Virus genome (UHGV): UHGV-0025829
Length of the DNA: 39,837 nucleotides
From: a virus
Direction: 5' to 3' (one strand)
Positions 5,946 to 37,280 of this stretch are shown one piece after another. A model generated the notes under the pieces. The model was not told the origin of the DNA. It worked only from the letters and a program-made list of their open reading frames with translations, and searched no databases. The position numbers and the translations under genes are program-made. Positions within the stretch are counted from its first letter, which is position 1. Each line of letters opens with the position of its first letter.

Positions 5946-6026
5946 AACTTGTTACCTCGGTCTGTTACCGTTGAGGTAATGATTATGCGTATTTGGTTTG
6001 GTGTCAATAGATATGAGTTAAAAAAA

Positions 6027-14875: not shown

Positions 14876-14952
14876 TGGCGTGGCATGCAGGATTCGAACC
14901 TGCGACCAACCGCTTAGAAGGCGGTTGCTCTGTCCAACTGAGCTAATGCCAC
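14876..14952 (-). tRNA. tRNA-Arg (anticodon UCU)
   Basis: Reverse complement folds as a cloverleaf: acceptor GTGGCAT/ATGCCAC, anticodon loop CTTCTAA, T-loop GGTTCGAATCC, 3-prime GCCA. Confidence 0.85.
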
Positions 14953-31659: not shown

Positions 31660-31668
31660 GGAACAACA

Positions 31669-32082
31669 ATGAAGGAATTATTGCTGTTATCGGTATTTTT
31701 GATATCCGCTTGCTCGACATCCTATGATGTTTATGACGGTGTTGATAAGGCATATTGCGACAAAGTTAAAATGGATTTTTCTCTTGCCAAGACGGCGAAG
31801 GATAGTTGTATTGATCACTACGTCAAGACTTATACCAAGCCAGCCTCATCGGCATCTGATATTGCTGAAGGTGCTGTGTTTGAGTGTAACAAGGTGATAT
31901 CCATCGCAGCGAGTTCTTCATACGATGCTGCTGTATGTGCAATGGCTGAAAGAAACGGCATGTCAGTGCAAAAAATTAATAGCATGATAAGCAGTAATGA
32001 CGAAGCCAAAATAAGAACTGATATCAGCTCGGTGAAAAAAGATGCCATGAACAGAGTTGTAAAATATCAGTCATCTTTATAA
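31669..32082 (+). CDS. Lipoprotein (candidate superinfection-exclusion / moron)
   Basis: Signal peptide MKELLLLSVFLISAC with lipobox; six Cys in the mature part. Confidence 0.6.
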   Translation: MKELLLLSVFLISACSTSYDVYDGVDKAYCDKVKMDFSLAKTAKDSCIDHYVKTYTKPASSASDIAEGAVFECNKVISIAASSSYDAAVCAMAERNGMSVQKINSMISSNDEAKIRTDISSVKKDAMNRVVKYQSSL

Positions 32083-32085
32083 GTC

Positions 32086-32097
32086 GTGACATGTCAC
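32086..32097. repeat. 12-bp perfect palindrome GTGACATGTCAC (copy 3 of 3)
   Basis: Exact match 4 bp after the lipoprotein stop and directly before the terminator. Confidence 0.7.
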
Positions 32098-32098
32098 A

Positions 32099-32122
32099 GG
32101 CCGCTTTCGCGGCCTTGTTTTT
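32099..32122 (+). terminator. Rho-independent terminator ending the late virion operon
   Basis: GGCCGC-TTTC-GCGGCC followed by TTGTTTTT. Confidence 0.7.
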
Positions 32123-32282
32123 AACGAATGCCACCGCCGCCCGGGCGGGAATCCGCAGAACGCCCACCGCAGCGGGAGCCGTCAGCGGCAGTATCGCTGT
32201 CGTGCTGACAACGACCGGCAAAGGCCTGAGTTGAAGCTACCAGAGACAACAAAACGAACAGTGCAGCAAATGCTTTTTTCAT
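32121..32282 (-). CDS. Candidate small secreted peptide (53 aa)
   Basis: Signal peptide MKKAFAALFVLLSLVASTQAFA; sigma70-like promoter TTGACG-17-ATAGAT upstream; weak SD; part of a longer spurious ORF in the track. Confidence 0.3.
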   Translation of the reverse strand: MKKAFAALFVLLSLVASTQAFAGRCQHDSDTAADGSRCGGRSADSRPGGGGIR

Positions 32283-32353
32283 TGTGAAATTTCCATCTAT
32301 AAGCCACCTCAATGTGGCGTCAATGAGTGTTAGCACTGACTTTTGTTTCGTCC

Positions 32354-32376
32354 ACAAAAAATCCCGCAGCGCGGGC
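32354..32376 (-). terminator. Rho-independent terminator after the AT-rich cassette
   Basis: CCCGC-AGC-GCGGG hairpin followed by T-run on the minus strand, directly after the stop at 32377. Confidence 0.55.
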
Positions 32377-32817
32377 TTATTCTTCTTCATCATTAAAAAG
32401 CGGATTGTTATTTCCATCTGATGAAAGGAAAGGTATGTGTTCTCTTGAAAATCCAACAATGACAATTTCATTATCATTTTTTGCATAATGAATGCATTCA
32501 TTAGAATGCATTCCGCCAGGGTTGAAATTTAAGTTAATGGTATAATTCTTAAATGTGTTTGGATACCATGTTGGCCCACAATGATAATGCCAATAATTCT
32601 CTTGCTCATAATTGTCTGAGCCTGGAATTTTATCATGGTTATCATCAACCCACGAGGGCTTGTTTTTTCCAACAAGCGCCCTTCCATTGGCAACATCCTC
32701 TAAAAACCTTTGTATGATTTTTATTTCATCATCAGTAAGGAAAGGTCCGTCTACAGCGAAAGGGGTGTTGCTTTCCCCATGTAGAAAACTATTAGATATT
32801 CTAATGTTAAACTTCAA
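32377..32817 (-). CDS. Hypothetical protein, AT-rich foreign-looking gene (146 aa)
   Basis: Asn/Ile/Phe-rich, strongly AT-biased codons compared with neighbours; no motif recognised. Confidence 0.55.
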   Translation of the reverse strand: MKFNIRISNSFLHGESNTPFAVDGPFLTDDEIKIIQRFLEDVANGRALVGKNKPSWVDDNHDKIPGSDNYEQENYWHYHCGPTWYPNTFKNYTINLNFNPGGMHSNECIHYAKNDNEIVIVGFSREHIPFLSSDGNNNPLFNDEEE

Positions 32818-32837
32818 GGAAAACTCCTGATGTGCTT

Positions 32838-33005
32838 CTATTTGGAGCGAAATGCCGCCTTGAAGTCGCTAAAAGATGTTCCTGTCTGGTAAACCATATC
32901 CTTGTCGCGCTCTTTGCTTGCGCGACCAAGCATAACTTTTCCAATGACATCCCAGCATTGCTTGGCTTGTTCATTGTGCTGAGTACGATTTTTCAACGCT
33001 GTCAT
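32838..33005 (-). CDS. Small hypothetical protein (55 aa) upstream of the AT-rich gene
   Basis: ATG 7 nt after AGGAGG SD; stop 20 bp before the next start; below the ORF-track cutoff. Confidence 0.45.
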   Translation of the reverse strand: MTALKNRTQHNEQAKQCWDVIGKVMLGRASKERDKDMVYQTGTSFSDFKAAFRSK

Positions 33006-33017
33006 ATCGCGCCTCCT

Positions 33018-33032
33018 TTACCTTTAAGGTAA
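33018..33032. promoter_or_regulatory. Operator palindrome TTACCTTTAAGGTAA
   Basis: Perfect motif copy abutting the SD of the 33005 gene. Confidence 0.55.
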
Positions 33033-33098
33033 TATTACGCGAATCTACATCACATCGCCAATGATTATTTTAAAGGCACATCCCTGTGCCGCCGCCCA

Positions 33099-33810
33099 TC
33101 AGAAGAACCCAGCTTTGTCGTTGATGTACTCCGCGTGCGTCTGGATATCACGCAGGCATTTACTCACACCAACGATGTAGCAGAACATGGTGGTCAGTTC
33201 CGCCGCCGCGCCCGATACATCATGCCCGTCGTCCTGCAACTGATTCAGCAGATTCATCAGCAATGAGTTCTCCGTCAGGCCGAGAACACCAGACGGTGAA
33301 TGAATCAGACTGCGGTAGCCTGGCTTCAGTGGGGCACTGTAGGTTTTGTTCTCTATCTTCATTGCCTGTATTACTGCTGACGCCGTGGCGTTGGCTACCT
33401 GGTCGGCAACCATCTTTATGCGTTCTTCCTGCGGGAGCGAGTTTTTAATGTAACTTCCGGTGCGGCGGATCTGAGGAAGAACCTCACCTGTAACCCATTT
33501 ACGAAAGCGGTAGGGGATAGTGCCTGGTGTCACCGCATCGCGGCAGCGGAGGATCAGTGTGTAGAGGCCTGACTCGGAGATGATGTTGATCTCTTTTACT
33601 CGGCTGTCAAAAATTGCACGATGTTCATGCCCTATGTTGAACATAGACCTTTCATCATCATCCAGTTTTTCAAGTGATTGGGTGACGTTTTGGATACGCA
33701 GCGCACTACAAACGTCTTGGGCTACAAACCATGGTTGGCCATCGATAATGATGGAACGGATAGGGTTAACAGATTCAAATTTGAAGATGGCAGTTTGAGC
33801 ATTAGCCATG
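33099..33810 (-). CDS. Antirepressor (Bro-N / Ant-like N-terminal domain plus C-terminal domain)
   Basis: FKFESVNPIRSIIIDGQPWFVAQDVCSALRIQNVTQSLEKLDDDE matches the Bro-N fold pattern; ATG at 33810 with GGAGAT SD; C-terminus paralogous to the 34125..34382 product. Confidence 0.7.
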
Positions 33811-33827
33811 GTGGTTATCTCCACTTA

Positions 33828-33841
33828 GTGATTTTAATCAC
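33828..33841. promoter_or_regulatory. 14-bp perfect palindrome GTGATTTTAATCAC at the antirepressor promoter/RBS
   Basis: Lies 18 bp upstream of the ant ATG, next to the SD. Confidence 0.5.
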
Positions 33842-33963
33842 CACCGCAACGCCAATTACTGGTGGTGAACTGGACAAGGTTGGCGTACCGGCCTAAGTGG
33901 TACCGGCGTCCTTTCGGACCCCTGCCCAGCCCACCATAATTCGGATATGGCTGTGCTTAACGC

Positions 33964-33988
33964 ATAAAAAAACCACGTCTGGCGTGGT
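33964..33988 (-). terminator. Rho-independent terminator inside the ant upstream region
   Basis: ACCACG-TCTGG-CGTGGT hairpin with T-run on the minus strand. Confidence 0.5.
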
Positions 33989-34078
33989 ATGCGCCACTTA
34001 GTAACTCGGGACGCCAATCCCGGCACTGGATTTTGCCAGTACCCGATTACTATGGCACAAGAGGAGTGCGATGTAAAT

Positions 34079-34093
34079 TTACCTCAAAGGTAA
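34079..34093. promoter_or_regulatory. Operator palindrome TTACCTCAAAGGTAA
   Basis: Perfect motif copy 32 bp downstream of the small antirepressor-paralog gene. Confidence 0.55.
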
Positions 34094-34124
34094 ATATAAG
34101 CACTCCATTTGGTAATTGCAAACC

Positions 34125-34382
34125 TTATCTGGTTTGTTTTCGTAATTGTTCGGCACAATAGTCGAGATGTGTTTGCAGATCCTGCATAGACATCTGTGAG
34201 CTGGTGACGTAGTTAATCAATGCAGTCAGTTCGGCAAGTGGGCCATCGACATTAAATCCATCCTTATCGAGATCCCGGAGTAATTTCATCAAGTGCGATC
34301 CCTCCACCAGTGACCTGACGCCTCCCGGCGTGTGAATCCTTTCGGTAAATCCGTCTTCCAGTGGATAGTGATACTGCTGCAT
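34125..34382 (-). CDS. Small antirepressor-domain protein (paralog of the Ant C-terminal domain), LexA-regulated candidate
   Basis: 85 aa from ATG 34382 with GGAGAA SD; aligns with the Ant C-terminus (HxPxGV...AELT...DxQTH); LexA box just upstream. Confidence 0.6.
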   Translation of the reverse strand: MQQYHYPLEDGFTERIHTPGGVRSLVEGSHLMKLLRDLDKDGFNVDGPLAELTALINYVTSSQMSMQDLQTHLDYCAEQLRKQTR

Positions 34383-34401
34383 CTTATCTTCTCCATGCAA
34401 T

Positions 34402-34421
34402 AACTGTATATTTATACAGTA
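34402..34421. promoter_or_regulatory. LexA (SOS) box AACTGTATATTTATACAGTA
   Basis: CTGT-N8-ACAG with AT-rich centre, close to the E. coli consensus TACTGTATATATATACAGTA. Confidence 0.7.
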
Positions 34422-34458
34422 GCAAATAATTTGTTTGCTATCCAGCACGTTTTGCAAA

Positions 34459-34473
34459 TCACCTGAAAGGTAA
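34459..34473. promoter_or_regulatory. Operator-type palindrome TCACCTGAAAGGTAA
   Basis: One mismatch in the left half; between the LexA box and the tailspike start. Confidence 0.45.
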
Positions 34474-34577
34474 TATCTGTTCGTATTTATGGGTTATCTA
34501 TCCATATGTGGTTTTTCAGGTAATAGAATAACCGGATATGCGGCGCAACGGGTGCTGCGACTATCTGGAGATTTAAC

Positions 34578-37280
34578 ATGACGGTCTCAACCGAAGTTGA
34601 CCACAACGAATACACAGGTAACGGCGTTACGACATCATTTCCTTATACCTTTAGGGTTTTCAATAAATCTGATCTGGTAGTGCAGGTGATTGACCCTGAC
34701 GAGAATATCACTGTGCTGGCTCTTGATACTGATTACACGGTGACGGGGGCTGGAGGATATACTGGCGGGAATGTTGTGCTGATGTCCCCGCTGGCCAACG
34801 GATGGCAGATTTCTATCTCGCGTGACCTTCCAGTTACCCAGGAGACTGACCTACGCAACCAGGGGAAGTTCTTCGCAGAAGTGCATGAAGATGCGTTCGA
34901 CAAGCTGACCATGCTGATCCAGCAGTGCTTCAGCTTTCTCCGACTGGCGCTGCGCAAGCCGTCGTTCATCGCTAACTATTACGACGCGCTCAACAACCGC
35001 ATTCGTAACCTGCGTGACCCGTCACAGGAACAGGATGCGGCCACAAAGAATTATGTTGATGGTCAGATTGTTGACAACACCAATGCATGGAAAGCCGCGG
35101 ACGTCGTTCTTGATAATAAAATTGACAGCAATTTTCGGCGCACTCTTAGGGTTCCTGAGAGCAATATCCAAGTATTGCCTACCATAGATGCAAGAAAGAA
35201 GAAATTATTCGCCTGGGATGATTCAGGAAATCCAATTTCTGTACTTCCTGAATCAGGATCTGCGTCTGATGTTCTTATTGAGTTAGCTTCCAGTTATGGT
35301 TTTAGCCTTATCGGGCAGGCTACGTATTCGCAGATCCGTAATTTCACAGGATCAGGTAACTCAATAATGTGCTGCGGTTGCGAAACACTTCTGGATGGTG
35401 GTCAGGGCATGTTCGATCAGGTTCCTGGTGGGGCAGTTATGACCACTCCAGACGATGGCTGTGTATTTATTCGCGATACTATTGGGCGGTTATGGAAACG
35501 CCGTTATGAGGGAAATGAGATCCTGATGGCATGGGCCGGGGCTAAAAGCCTGAAACAAACTTCGGAACCGCAGGACCCGGCCTTTAGAAAGTGCCTTCAG
35601 GCCGCTGCCTCTTTGTCTGAGTCAGGCTATCCGCAATCTATTATCCGGGGGCTGGACAACGCCACCACATACCTTGCTGAAAAGCACCATATCCGCTGCG
35701 GTAACTTCCCGGAGTACATGGCGTGGAAACTTCCACCTGACGGCGGCGGCCGGCGTTTCGGTATTAAAGGGACGTGGGCTCAGGGGTTAGGTGCCGGTTG
35801 GTTTGTCGTACAGGCTAACCATCCGCTGTTCGATTTCACAATCGATAATACCGGCATTGATTTCAATCTGGATGCGTATACCGATGAAGAAATCAAAGTC
35901 CTCGTCGAAGACAACTATATTTTACGTCTGGAGGCGATGGTAAATGCCCCGGAATTTAATGTTCATGCAGGCAACCACCCGGGGACTGTACTTTACAGCC
36001 TCGGTAAATCTGATTATTCAGCGGTAACCGCACAGTGGCCTGATTTGACTACAGTGCTTCCGTCTATCCAGAACGTGGGCAAAGCGGCGTTTAATATTAA
36101 GCACTGCGGCAGGGATTTCCTGCTGAAGAACTGCGGTGCGGGTATGGGGCATTTCCACTCCGTCTGGACACAGGATAACTCTCAGCCGGGATATATTTAT
36201 TCCTGTTACGACCTGACGTTGACCTATGAGGACTACGTCCCCCATACAGAAGAACGCGGGGGGCTTATTTTCGAAGCGTGCGGGACCCTGTCTCTTGAAA
36301 ATATCCTGACCGGTGCGGGAGGCGTCGGGCATTTATGCATCTGGGACTGTCGAAATGTGACCATCAACAAGCACGTCTCGATATGCGGCGCACCTACCTA
36401 CGCGCAGTCGAACCCGAATCTGTATGCCGTGGAAATCTGTAACTCTGAGCTGGCTGTCTATGGTGTGCATGCCCAGGGCTCTGGCAAGTTTATGCGTATC
36501 GGCTTTAACTCACGCGTGACGTTCTACCACACGACGGCGTGGGACATTGCGCAGATGATTCTGGGTACCAATGACCTGAGTCTACTGAAGTATCGTGGTC
36601 AGCGAGCTGCGGTCCTTAACGACCCTATTAAAGTATTCCTTGAATCTGGATTTGTTCAGTCTGCGAATACTGCAGATAAGGGCTGGCCTTGCCAGCCGCT
36701 GATCGTGTTTGATGAAACAATCGGTGGTGATTTCCAGCTGTTGTTCAACCTCGAGGCAAATAATAACCACTCAGGATACGATACCCAGCCTGAGGCGTTA
36801 CTTGCGCTGATAGATATTCGATCTACCAGTCCTAATGGCGAGGTTGTCTTGGGTGAGCAGTCAAAACTGGAAGGTAATACGACAAACTACGTTGTGCGGC
36901 TGGCGAATAAAAACCAGCTCAAGGACGTATTTACTCGCAAAACTAACTTTGTTCGCATCCGGTATACGGATGATAACTCACAGTCTTCCTTTGCTTTGAG
37001 GCATGCTAATCACCCACTTCAAGGTACGGTTGTTGGACGTAACGCGTCCTACTCATATCCATATAAGCGTCCTGGCTTGTACAGCGTCAAAATCACTATT
37101 CCATCCGGTGGTGGATCTTTTTCTGTAACGCATAACGGATTCACGATTTATGAACAGGACCAGCCTGGAATTCATCGTGTACTTATTGATCTGAGATTCC
37201 AGGAAACCGTGCAGATCACTATTAACGGTGGCGAAAACGTCACTATGACAAACGCCGAATGGCGATATTATGTGGGGTAG
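34578..37280 (+). CDS. Tailspike / tail fiber with T7 gp17-like N-terminal adaptor domain and beta-helix-type receptor-binding body
   Basis: 900 aa; N-terminus YTGNGVTTSFPYTFRVFNKSDLVV resembles podovirus tail-fiber N-termini; GGAG SD. Confidence 0.75.
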   Translation: MTVSTEVDHNEYTGNGVTTSFPYTFRVFNKSDLVVQVIDPDENITVLALDTDYTVTGAGGYTGGNVVLMSPLANGWQISISRDLPVTQETDLRNQGKFFAEVHEDAFDKLTMLIQQCFSFLRLALRKPSFIANYYDALNNRIRNLRDPSQEQDAATKNYVDGQIVDNTNAWKAADVVLDNKIDSNFRRTLRVPESNIQVLPTIDARKKKLFAWDDSGNPISVLPESGSASDVLIELASSYGFSLIGQATYSQIRNFTGSGNSIMCCGCETLLDGGQGMFDQVPGGAVMTTPDDGCVFIRDTIGRLWKRRYEGNEILMAWAGAKSLKQTSEPQDPAFRKCLQAAASLSESGYPQSIIRGLDNATTYLAEKHHIRCGNFPEYMAWKLPPDGGGRRFGIKGTWAQGLGAGWFVVQANHPLFDFTIDNTGIDFNLDAYTDEEIKVLVEDNYILRLEAMVNAPEFNVHAGNHPGTVLYSLGKSDYSAVTAQWPDLTTVLPSIQNVGKAAFNIKHCGRDFLLKNCGAGMGHFHSVWTQDNSQPGYIYSCYDLTLTYEDYVPHTEERGGLIFEACGTLSLENILTGAGGVGHLCIWDCRNVTINKHVSICGAPTYAQSNPNLYAVEICNSELAVYGVHAQGSGKFMRIGFNSRVTFYHTTAWDIAQMILGTNDLSLLKYRGQRAAVLNDPIKVFLESGFVQSANTADKGWPCQPLIVFDETIGGDFQLLFNLEANNNHSGYDTQPEALLALIDIRSTSPNGEVVLGEQSKLEGNTTNYVVRLANKNQLKDVFTRKTNFVRIRYTDDNSQSSFALRHANHPLQGTVVGRNASYSYPYKRPGLYSVKITIPSGGGSFSVTHNGFTIYEQDQPGIHRVLIDLRFQETVQITINGGENVTMTNAEWRYYVG

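Follow-up and report, generated by a model that had tools for sequence, protein, structure and literature searches.

A probable P1/P7 immI-type antisense-RNA module upstream of the Bro-N antirepressor gene in a phiV10/epsilon15-like podophage genome

The virus genome UHGV-0025829 (39,837 nucleotides), hereafter called the window, i.e. the whole stretch of DNA that was analysed, corresponds to a phiV10/epsilon15-like podophage of 39.8 kb. On its minus strand, a region located between the ant gene, coding for a Bro-N antirepressor, and an 85-codon gene preceded by a LexA box is, with high confidence, an antisense-RNA immunity module of the P1/P7 immI type, which would keep the Bro-N ant gene untranslated in the lysogen. 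Read along the minus strand, the module comprises an operator-like repeat, a sigma-70 promoter, a 77-nt IsrK-like leader with a1, b1 and a terminator, a C4 RNA with b' and a', an a2 hairpin and a b2 site on the Shine-Dalgarno (SD) sequence of ant. Positions 33821-34093 (-) would very probably represent the complete module, a known kind of switch that was previously unannotated in this phage group.

This assignment is based on computed model scores, RNA folds, sequence complementarities, a three-way covariation among related loci, the conservation of the promoter and terminator, and the correspondence with phage P1; Rfam families that already exist account for most of the finding. It is inferred that these RNAs are produced in this phage, that C4 is processed, that ant is repressed at the translational level and that the leader serves as a decoy. 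An earlier note, made from the letters of the window alone, had described the region as a structured leader with a palindromic operator, repeats, a terminator and a candidate small RNA. Its observation is partly confirmed and its interpretation partly supported. The coordinates of all features are collected in Table 1.

C4 RNA and its a and b sites

The Rfam scan of the window at curated thresholds gave three matches, namely a tRNA elsewhere, and C4 and isrK in the region of interest. The latter two, both on the minus strand, are separated by 24 nt, and since both exceed their curated cut-offs, the idea of a small RNA put forward in the earlier note is supported. The predicted C4 RNA folds with −43.6 kcal/mol (z = −5.0), its minimum free energy (MFE) structure being equal to the centroid. 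Its basal stem, of 17 bp, encloses two hairpins, the first being a GAAA hairpin and the second presenting b' in a loop of 9 nt, ACCACUUAG. Compensatory changes were found at 14 of the 24 C4 consensus pairs among 30 homologues. Along with the model score and the fold, further characters of the C4 family were found in their places: a1 and b1 upstream of the RNA, a2 and b2 downstream of it, with b2 on the ribosome-binding site (RBS), and an antirepressor gene further downstream.

Concerning the 9-mer CCACTTAGT, which had been described as occurring twice in direct and once in inverted orientation, the two exact direct copies (33821-33829 and 33994-34002) are indeed present and are the only ones in the 39.8 kb, while the inverted copy at 33892-33900 (CCACTTAGG) matches at 8 of the 9 positions only, with a complementary core of 8 nt. 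These repeats are meaningful, as they correspond to b2, b1 and (inverted) b', respectively. A second repeat set, made of UUGGCGU (34011-34017 and 33849-33855) and its complement ACGCCAA (33880-33886), had been overlooked. Perfect complementarity extends over 8 nt for both b'/b1 and b'/b2, and over 7 nt for both a'/a1 and a'/a2.

Covariation across related loci

Viral contigs were scanned for the conserved a1 hairpin (GCAAAATC-N6-CGGG-N-TTGGC), and the same order (a1, b1, hairpin followed by a T run, C4, a2, b2 and start codon) could be parsed in 117 loci, which display 46 different b' loops. Within a given locus, the Watson-Crick runs reach on average 6.9 nt for b'/b1 and 7.9 nt for b'/b2, vs. 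3.5 and 3.9 nt between loci, and a b'/b2 run of at least 6 nt was found in 74 of the 77 cognate combinations vs. 135 of the 2070 non-cognate ones. As for b'/b1, the strict Watson-Crick run is only 3-5 nt long in 19 of 77 cases; when G-U pairs are allowed, 43 of the 46 b'-loop classes have a run of at least 7 nt. In the sole locus with an altered a' (AUGCCAA), a1 and a2 both read UUGGCAU, which matches it. Covariation in the relatives, a check set in the earlier note, was therefore observed for b'/b1/b2 as well as for the C4 pairs, and because of this three-way covariation the clustering of the repeats is far beyond chance.

In most of the 91 distinct modules, b2 ends 6-16 nt 5' of the start codon. 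Both isrK and C4 scored above cut-off in 14 out of 14 diverse loci, about 25 nt apart, and the genes located downstream in the relatives code for various antirepressor types (Bro-N, ORF6N, Rha, or Bro-N with P22_AR_C) or for Icd-like proteins.

The b' class GUUUGAGUAG (loci L025, L031, L046, L072 and L103) has its b2 (ACUACUCAA) directly after the AUG, over codons 2-4 and off the SD. The interpretation of this class as a failure of b2 was dropped, b2 being located just 3' of the AUG, and the target can therefore shift within the ribosome-binding window.

Promoter, IsrK-like leader and terminator

The isrK model (RF01394) matches positions 33966-34042 (-) with 63.5 bits, for a gathering cut-off of 50. 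Its position 1 coincides with the start predicted for the sigma-70-like promoter (34042), whose geometry agrees with that of P1c4/P51b in P1, and among related loci, 88 distinct upstream regions have equivalent −35 and −10 elements with unchanged spacing. Model score, own conserved promoter and intrinsic terminator, three characters of the IsrK family, are thus all found here.

The minus-strand intrinsic terminator reported in the earlier note is present, with a stem at 33988..33972 followed by a T run. That no open reading frame (ORF) stands before it is essentially right, as solely short overlapping ORFs, with no Pfam or NCBIfam match, were found there. Both roles proposed for this terminator, i.e. 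ending a short RNA or the transcript of the LexA-controlled gene, are possible: the leader has a conserved promoter of its own, and the terminator is the first one 3' of that gene. An equivalent hairpin with a T run was recognized by a simple detector in at least 67 of the 91 distinct modules, and also in P1; in the modules missed by this detector, a GC hairpin and a T run were seen by eye.

The second, weaker promoter-like site upstream of the first one is a possible counterpart of P2c4/P51a in P1, judging from its position, and a TAnnAT-like hexamer immediately 5' of the operator-like repeat recurs in related loci. In locus L090, the a1b1 element is followed by unrelated sequence in place of the terminator and C4, which looks like an insertion or a rearrangement breaking the module.

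Table 1. Features of the region upstream of the Bro-N ant gene and of its surroundings (window coordinates)
Feature	Position	Strand	Description
C4 antisense RNA (predicted)	33858..33941	-	Rfam RF01695, 66 bits vs. cut-off 45, full-length match
a1 (UUGGCGU)	34011..34017	-	loop of leader hairpin 2; complementary to a'
b1 (ACUAAGUGG)	33994..34002	-	complementary to the b' loop
b' (CCACUUAG)	33893..33900	-	in the 9-nt loop of the second C4 hairpin
a' (ACGCCAA)	33880..33886	-	exactly the single 7-nt unpaired stretch in C4
a2 hairpin (UCACCACC ... GGUGGUGA)	33838..33868	-	a2 (UUGGCGU, 33849-33855) in the loop; conserved in relatives
b2 (ACUAAGUGG)	33821..33829	-	reads ACUAAGUGG-AG; overlaps SD GGAG (33819-33822), 9 nt 5' of ant AUG
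IsrK-like a1b1 leader RNA (77 nt, predicted)	33966..34042	-	hairpin 1 (loop GCAAAAUC), hairpin 2 with a1, b1, intrinsic terminator
Intrinsic terminator of the leader	33965..33988	-	stem ACCACG-CCAGA-CGUGGU at 33988..33972, then U run
Leader/C4 promoter	34049..34077	-	−35 TTTACA, 17-nt spacer, TG-extended −10 CATAGT; sigma-70-like; predicted start 34042
Upstream promoter-like site	34093..34121	-	TTGCAA-17-TATATT; 9/12 consensus matches; weaker; −10 adjoins the operator-like repeat
Operator-like inverted repeat TTACC-TCAAA-GGTAA	34079..34093	.	centre ~44 nt 5' of the predicted IsrK-like start; between both promoter-like sites
'Palindrome' GUGAU-UAAA-AUCAC	33828..33841	-	5-bp arms (GTGAT/ATCAC) around 4 nt; a2 stem end plus variable spacer
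Antirepressor gene ant	33099..33809	-	236 aa from ATG at 33809; Pfam Bro-N 69.6 bits; C-terminal domain like the small Ant
Small antirepressor gene	34125..34382	-	85 aa; homologue of SPC32H Ant
LexA box CTGTATATTTATACAG	34404..34419	-	perfect; one of just three CTGT-N8-ACAG matches in the window

Proposed mechanism and alternative explanations

Transcription would start at about 34042 from the conserved sigma-70 promoter, and the intrinsic terminator would stop most of the transcripts, giving rise to the 77-nt IsrK-like leader with a1 and b1. The read-through RNA would contain C4, excised from the precursor if P1 can serve as a guide, followed by the ant leader. By means of b' (in its loop) and a' (unpaired), C4 would pair with b2, on the SD of ant, and with a2, in its hairpin loop, and ribosome binding would be blocked, not only for the resident transcript but also, in trans, for an incoming phage whose b sequence is identical. 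The a1/b1 leader would act as a target mimic that captures C4, whether within one precursor (in cis) or as the separate short RNA (in trans), thus relieving the repression. An experimental demonstration of such relief exists for the homologous IsrK of prophage Gifsy-1. Hartmann et al. are said to have shown in 1995 that the 5' end of C4 is cut from its precursor by RNase P.

An alternative is the cis-only leader switch proposed for IsrK of prophage Gifsy-1, which we consider unlikely here. In such a switch, the a1-a' and b1-b' pairings would fold the mRNA into a silent form that the short leader opens in trans, and 'C4' would be no diffusible repressor, merely a part of the mRNA leader or a coupled ORF. 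In Gifsy-1, the isrK promoter drives the transcription of anrP, the read-through mRNA is translationally silent, and IsrK provided in trans leads to more than 100-fold more anrP translation (Hershko-Shalev et al. 2016, PMC4825925). The mutational and native-gel data obtained there fit two alternative structures, A and B, with a requirement for orf45 translation, and the a1/a' and b1/b' complementarities are present in the window as well. Counted from the start, the G's and C's of the validated Gifsy-1 pairs, G28-C162 and G31-C159 (PMC4825925), are those of a1 (UUGGCGU) and a' (ACGCCAA), respectively. The effect of IsrK in trans and these validated pairs also count in favour of the immI-type module.

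Several observations are nevertheless at odds with this cis-only switch. The counterpart of orf45 in the window has 14 codons (33893-33937) and stops in the b' loop, 68-83 nt 5' of the ant AUG, and in the relatives it is 3 to 72 codons long. The translational coupling of Gifsy-1 is therefore inapplicable here, and the simpler mechanism would be that of P1, in which C4 directly occludes the SD. Besides, a2 and b2 would be left without a role, yet b2 sits on the SD and covaries with b' better than b1 does, and the C4 of P1/P7 is a processed, trans-acting repressor of 77 nt (P1 annotation; PMC8198154).

Other points weigh against the immI-type module itself. The Gifsy-1 authors explained their data by alternative mRNA structures and coupling via orf45, with no trans-acting C4, and constitutive STnc1160/orf45 increased the toxicity of IsrK, which is unexpected under a simple model where C4 represses ant (PMC4825925). 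In a permissive Rfam scan, the c4-a1b1 model (RF03163; 34003-34055) obtained 43.4 bits for a cut-off of 46.7, i.e. marginally under it, though the overlapping isrK match passes its own. Start site, termination efficiency and C4 processing are predictions for this phage and its close relatives. Finally, the 5' arm of the a2 hairpin and the 3' strand of the C4 basal stem overlap in the predicted structures, with the bases CACCACC in common, and either of the two may form in vivo.

The explanation given in the earlier note, a protein operator formed by a 14-bp perfect palindrome at the RBS together with P22-like control of the Mnt/Arc and sar type, is very improbable. An inverted repeat does adjoin the SD, and the control of ant by an antisense RNA is a theme of P22 immI. 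The sequence GTGATTTTAATCAC was found at 33828-33841, but comparison with its reverse complement, GTGATTAAAATCAC, reveals two mismatches, and the palindrome is thus an imperfect repeat (5+4+5). The 5' arm, GUGAU, belongs to the a2 stem (GGUGGUGA), a conserved element of which it forms the end, whereas the 3' arm, AUCAC, is not conserved in close relatives, unrelated sequence being found in phiV10 and others despite near-identical flanks. The corresponding hairpin shows up solely in the full-length MFE structure. An alternative pairing of GGUGGUGAU with AUAACCACC would enclose b2 and the SD in a loop, and similar pairings are possible in the relatives. The palindrome is regarded as a spacer or RNA-structure sequence, at most a local RNA hairpin, and not as a protein operator; the true operator-like site, TTACC-N5-GGTAA (34079-34093), is located elsewhere.

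Concerning the P22-like part of this explanation, P22 sar (RF00262) gave no match even at E ≤ 10 in the permissive Rfam scan of the window, no plus-strand promoter was predicted in 32800-34800, and no arc- or mnt-like ORFs were found between the small ant and the Bro-N ant genes. A sar-like cis-antisense RNA was rejected on account of the absence of both a sar match and a predicted plus-strand promoter.

There is just as little to recommend a small protein, instead of an RNA, as the product of the conserved segment. The phiV10 GenBank record has, in the equivalent stretch, solely a 'terminator' and a misc_feature 'similar to SF0880' (L001 3297-3364), the ZX5 record has a 37-aa 'ash family protein' coding sequence (CDS) placed over the C4 position (L124 1027-1140), and a tagged orf45 product was detected in Gifsy-1. 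Neither the local ORFs nor the 'ash family' CDS of ZX5 gave a Pfam or NCBIfam match, and ORF length is not conserved; a protein-coding role of the C4 region was rejected on these grounds. In the window, the frame is closed after only 14 codons, base pairs are kept by substitutions while codons are not, and the Gifsy-1 authors themselves note a conserved nucleotide but variable amino-acid sequence (PMC4825925). The labels 'ash family protein' and 'similar to hypothetical protein SF0880' at the C4 position are probably a mis-annotated RNA gene.

Operator-like repeat at the promoter

Nine exact copies of the inverted repeat TTACC-N5-GGTAA are present in the window (at 5965, 6027, 6739, 9070, 9132, 12115, 15275, 33018 and 34079), two pairs of which (5965/6027 and 9070/9132) have a 62-bp spacing, and copies with one mismatch occur at 210, 6787, 7124, 12133, 34459 and 35993. 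When up to two mismatches are allowed, the window contains 39 copies vs. 10.8 expected, a number reached by none of 100 shuffles. Among the related loci, 69 exact copies were found in 231 kb where the repeat is present at the promoter, and none in 821 kb where it is absent there. This distribution argues for an operator-like element, presumably bound by the phage group's own regulator, and the dispersed copies recall the dispersed C1 operators of P1. In P1, the operon promoter is under the additional control of the main phage repressor, at Oc4/Op51; in the window, a copy of this multi-copy repeat adjoins the promoter.

A 12-nt inverted repeat (34058-34069 / 34100-34111, with a GGAGTGC...GCACTCC core) flanks the operator-like repeat and the −35 region. 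It could be an RNA stem of read-through transcripts or a second protein site, and its flank ...GGAGTGCTTAT... recurs in close relatives.

The small LexA-boxed antirepressor gene

The 85-aa protein encoded upstream of the module is 88% identical to the CDS 'ant: anti-repressor protein' of Salmonella phage SPC32H (KC911856). According to the summary given in PMC7380047, the SPC32H Ant is the LexA-controlled antirepressor of Kim & Ryu 2013, and the identity of the small gene follows from this match and that review. LexA boxes of the form CTGT-N8-ACAG recur with unchanged spacing in 11 of 17 related loci. The 85-aa protein also shares 42% identity with the C-terminal 74 aa of the Bro-N Ant, and an Ant-like C-terminal domain is present in 7 of the 41 module-linked antirepressors, all of the operator-bearing group. 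Judging from these similarities, both antirepressors probably hit the same repressor, under two separate controls.

The C4/Bro-N cassette was not found in SPC32H (L123, KC911856 17882-21730, compared with window 31660-34124), in which the small ant gene directly adjoins convergent structural genes. Because SPC32H is without it, the cassette is, as far as this comparison indicates, an insertion in the E. coli lineage, the window ORFs 31669-32082 (+) and 32377-32817 (-) being inserted as well. Small ant genes that are 97-100% identical (L001, L010, L019, L037, L100, L111 and the window) stand beside four b classes (GUCCUUUUAG, GUCCUUUGUAG, UACCUACUAGG and UACCACUUAGG), which suggests that the RNA-defined immunity classes diversify or are exchanged fast.

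The terminator scan predicted no terminator between the small ant gene and the a1b1 element. As this gene lacks a terminator of its own, its SOS-induced transcripts would enter a1b1 and stop at the terminator of the latter. It is conceivable, although rather doubtful, that such transcripts carry the a1b1 decoy at their 3' end, titrate C4 and switch on the larger ant, in the manner of an RNA-sponge feed-forward amplifier of induction. Should this hold true, the IsrK and c4 literatures would deal with one system, in which IsrK is a natural anti-C4 sponge.

Genomic context and implications

Over positions 33000-34600, the window shares 97.8% identity with Escherichia phage HEMP4, while phiV10, TL-2011b, ZX5 and other podophages of the genus Uetakevirus (epsilon15-like) reach 92-94%. 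Similar DNA was found in 241 phage records, many of which correspond to Stx-converting phages, and Klebsiella phages are also represented. Elsewhere in the window, a phage-encoded tRNA-Arg (anticodon TCT) is located at 14876-14952 (-).

The immI-type module corrects the 'hypothetical', 'ash family' or 'terminator' annotations in phiV10- and epsilon15-like phages of E. coli, Stx phages and Klebsiella phages, and would account for the silencing of the second antirepressor in those phages. The 46 b-loop classes, on near-identical backbones, indicate many RNA-defined immunity specificities, i.e. the P1-versus-P7 principle on a far larger scale. This is of relevance when superinfection immunity and cross-induction are to be predicted for prophages residing in one host, Stx phages among them. 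It also joins the literatures on Gifsy-1 IsrK and P1 c4, with the simpler, testable view that IsrK is a C4 decoy.

Comparison with known systems

The resemblance to P22 ant invoked in the earlier note holds at the functional level, an antisense RNA controlling ant, but not at the level of homology: there is no sar match, and P1/P7 immI is the homologous system. In P22 immI, too, ant is off in lysogens, partly by a small RNA at the translation start; there, however, the cis-antisense RNA sar is transcribed from the opposite strand, and the repressors Arc and Mnt are proteins. As for phage P4, its CI RNA with seqA/seqC belongs, like C4, to Rfam clan CL00128 and, as proposed here, a processed RNA from the operon leader pairs with sites up- and downstream, with an 'ash'-type ORF annotation overlapping the RNA. 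P4 differs in that premature transcription termination of the replication operon is at stake, with no antirepressor RBS, and the best model for the present RNA is C4, not CI.

With Gifsy-1, the window shares a short terminated leader RNA and read-through into an antirepressor gene. It differs by its b specificity (the Gifsy-type loop is UCGGUGAU), by the absence of isrJ after the ant gene and by the lack of a 45-codon ORF overlapping the ant start, so that the coupling via orf45 finds no equivalent. The Gifsy-1 authors likened IsrK to seqA/CI of P4 rather than to P1 c4 (PMC4825925), and a 2025 review still keeps IsrK and c4 apart as systems. In the Gifsy-type, isrJ-bearing loci L026 (1130-1315) and L003 (2895-3080), Rfam C4 scores 70-73 bits exactly at orf45/STnc1160, and Gifsy-1 lysogens show high transcription of both IsrK and STnc1160. 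On the strength of these matches, the Gifsy-1 IsrK/orf45 locus appears to be the same module, the Gifsy orf45/STnc1160 being the C4 RNA. Likewise, the Rfam families isrK (assigned to no clan) and c4-a1b1 (clan CL00128) represent one element.

The c4 antisense RNA of P1/P7 immI, with its a1/b1 and a2/b2 sites controlling icd-ant1/2, was reportedly described by Citron & Schuster in 1990. The P1 record (NC_005856) gives the order C1 operator Oc4/Op51, P2c4/P51a, P1c4/P51b, a1, b1, c4 (77 nt), a2, b2, icd and ant1/2. In the P1 sequence, a hairpin and a T run lie between b1 and c4, b2 (GUUAGUGA) stands over the SD, with 10 nt left to the start codon of icd, and the Rfam scores are 68.8 bits for C4, similar to the 66 bits of the window, 51.0 for c4-a1b1 and 35.1 for isrK (L125 3218-3423). 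The two systems differ in several respects. Above all, the first gene is here that of the Bro-N antirepressor, whereas P1 has icd and then the translationally linked ant1/2; the a and b sequences are UUGGCGU and ACUAAGUGG here vs. UUGACAG and GUUAGUG in P1; TTACC-N5-GGTAA is of another sequence than the P1 operator and lies between the promoter-like sites, while the latter is on the −35 of the upstream promoter; and the module is carried by a 40-kb epsilon15-like podophage, with a LexA-controlled small ant upstream, P1 being a plasmid prophage. For the rest, P1 immI and the window agree in the order of their parts, from the operator (operator-like repeat here) and the promoter(s) through the a1 loop, b1 and the hairpin with its U run to C4, which measures about 80 nt and has b' looped and a' single-stranded, and on to a2 and to b2, on the SD and 10-11 nt from the first start codon.

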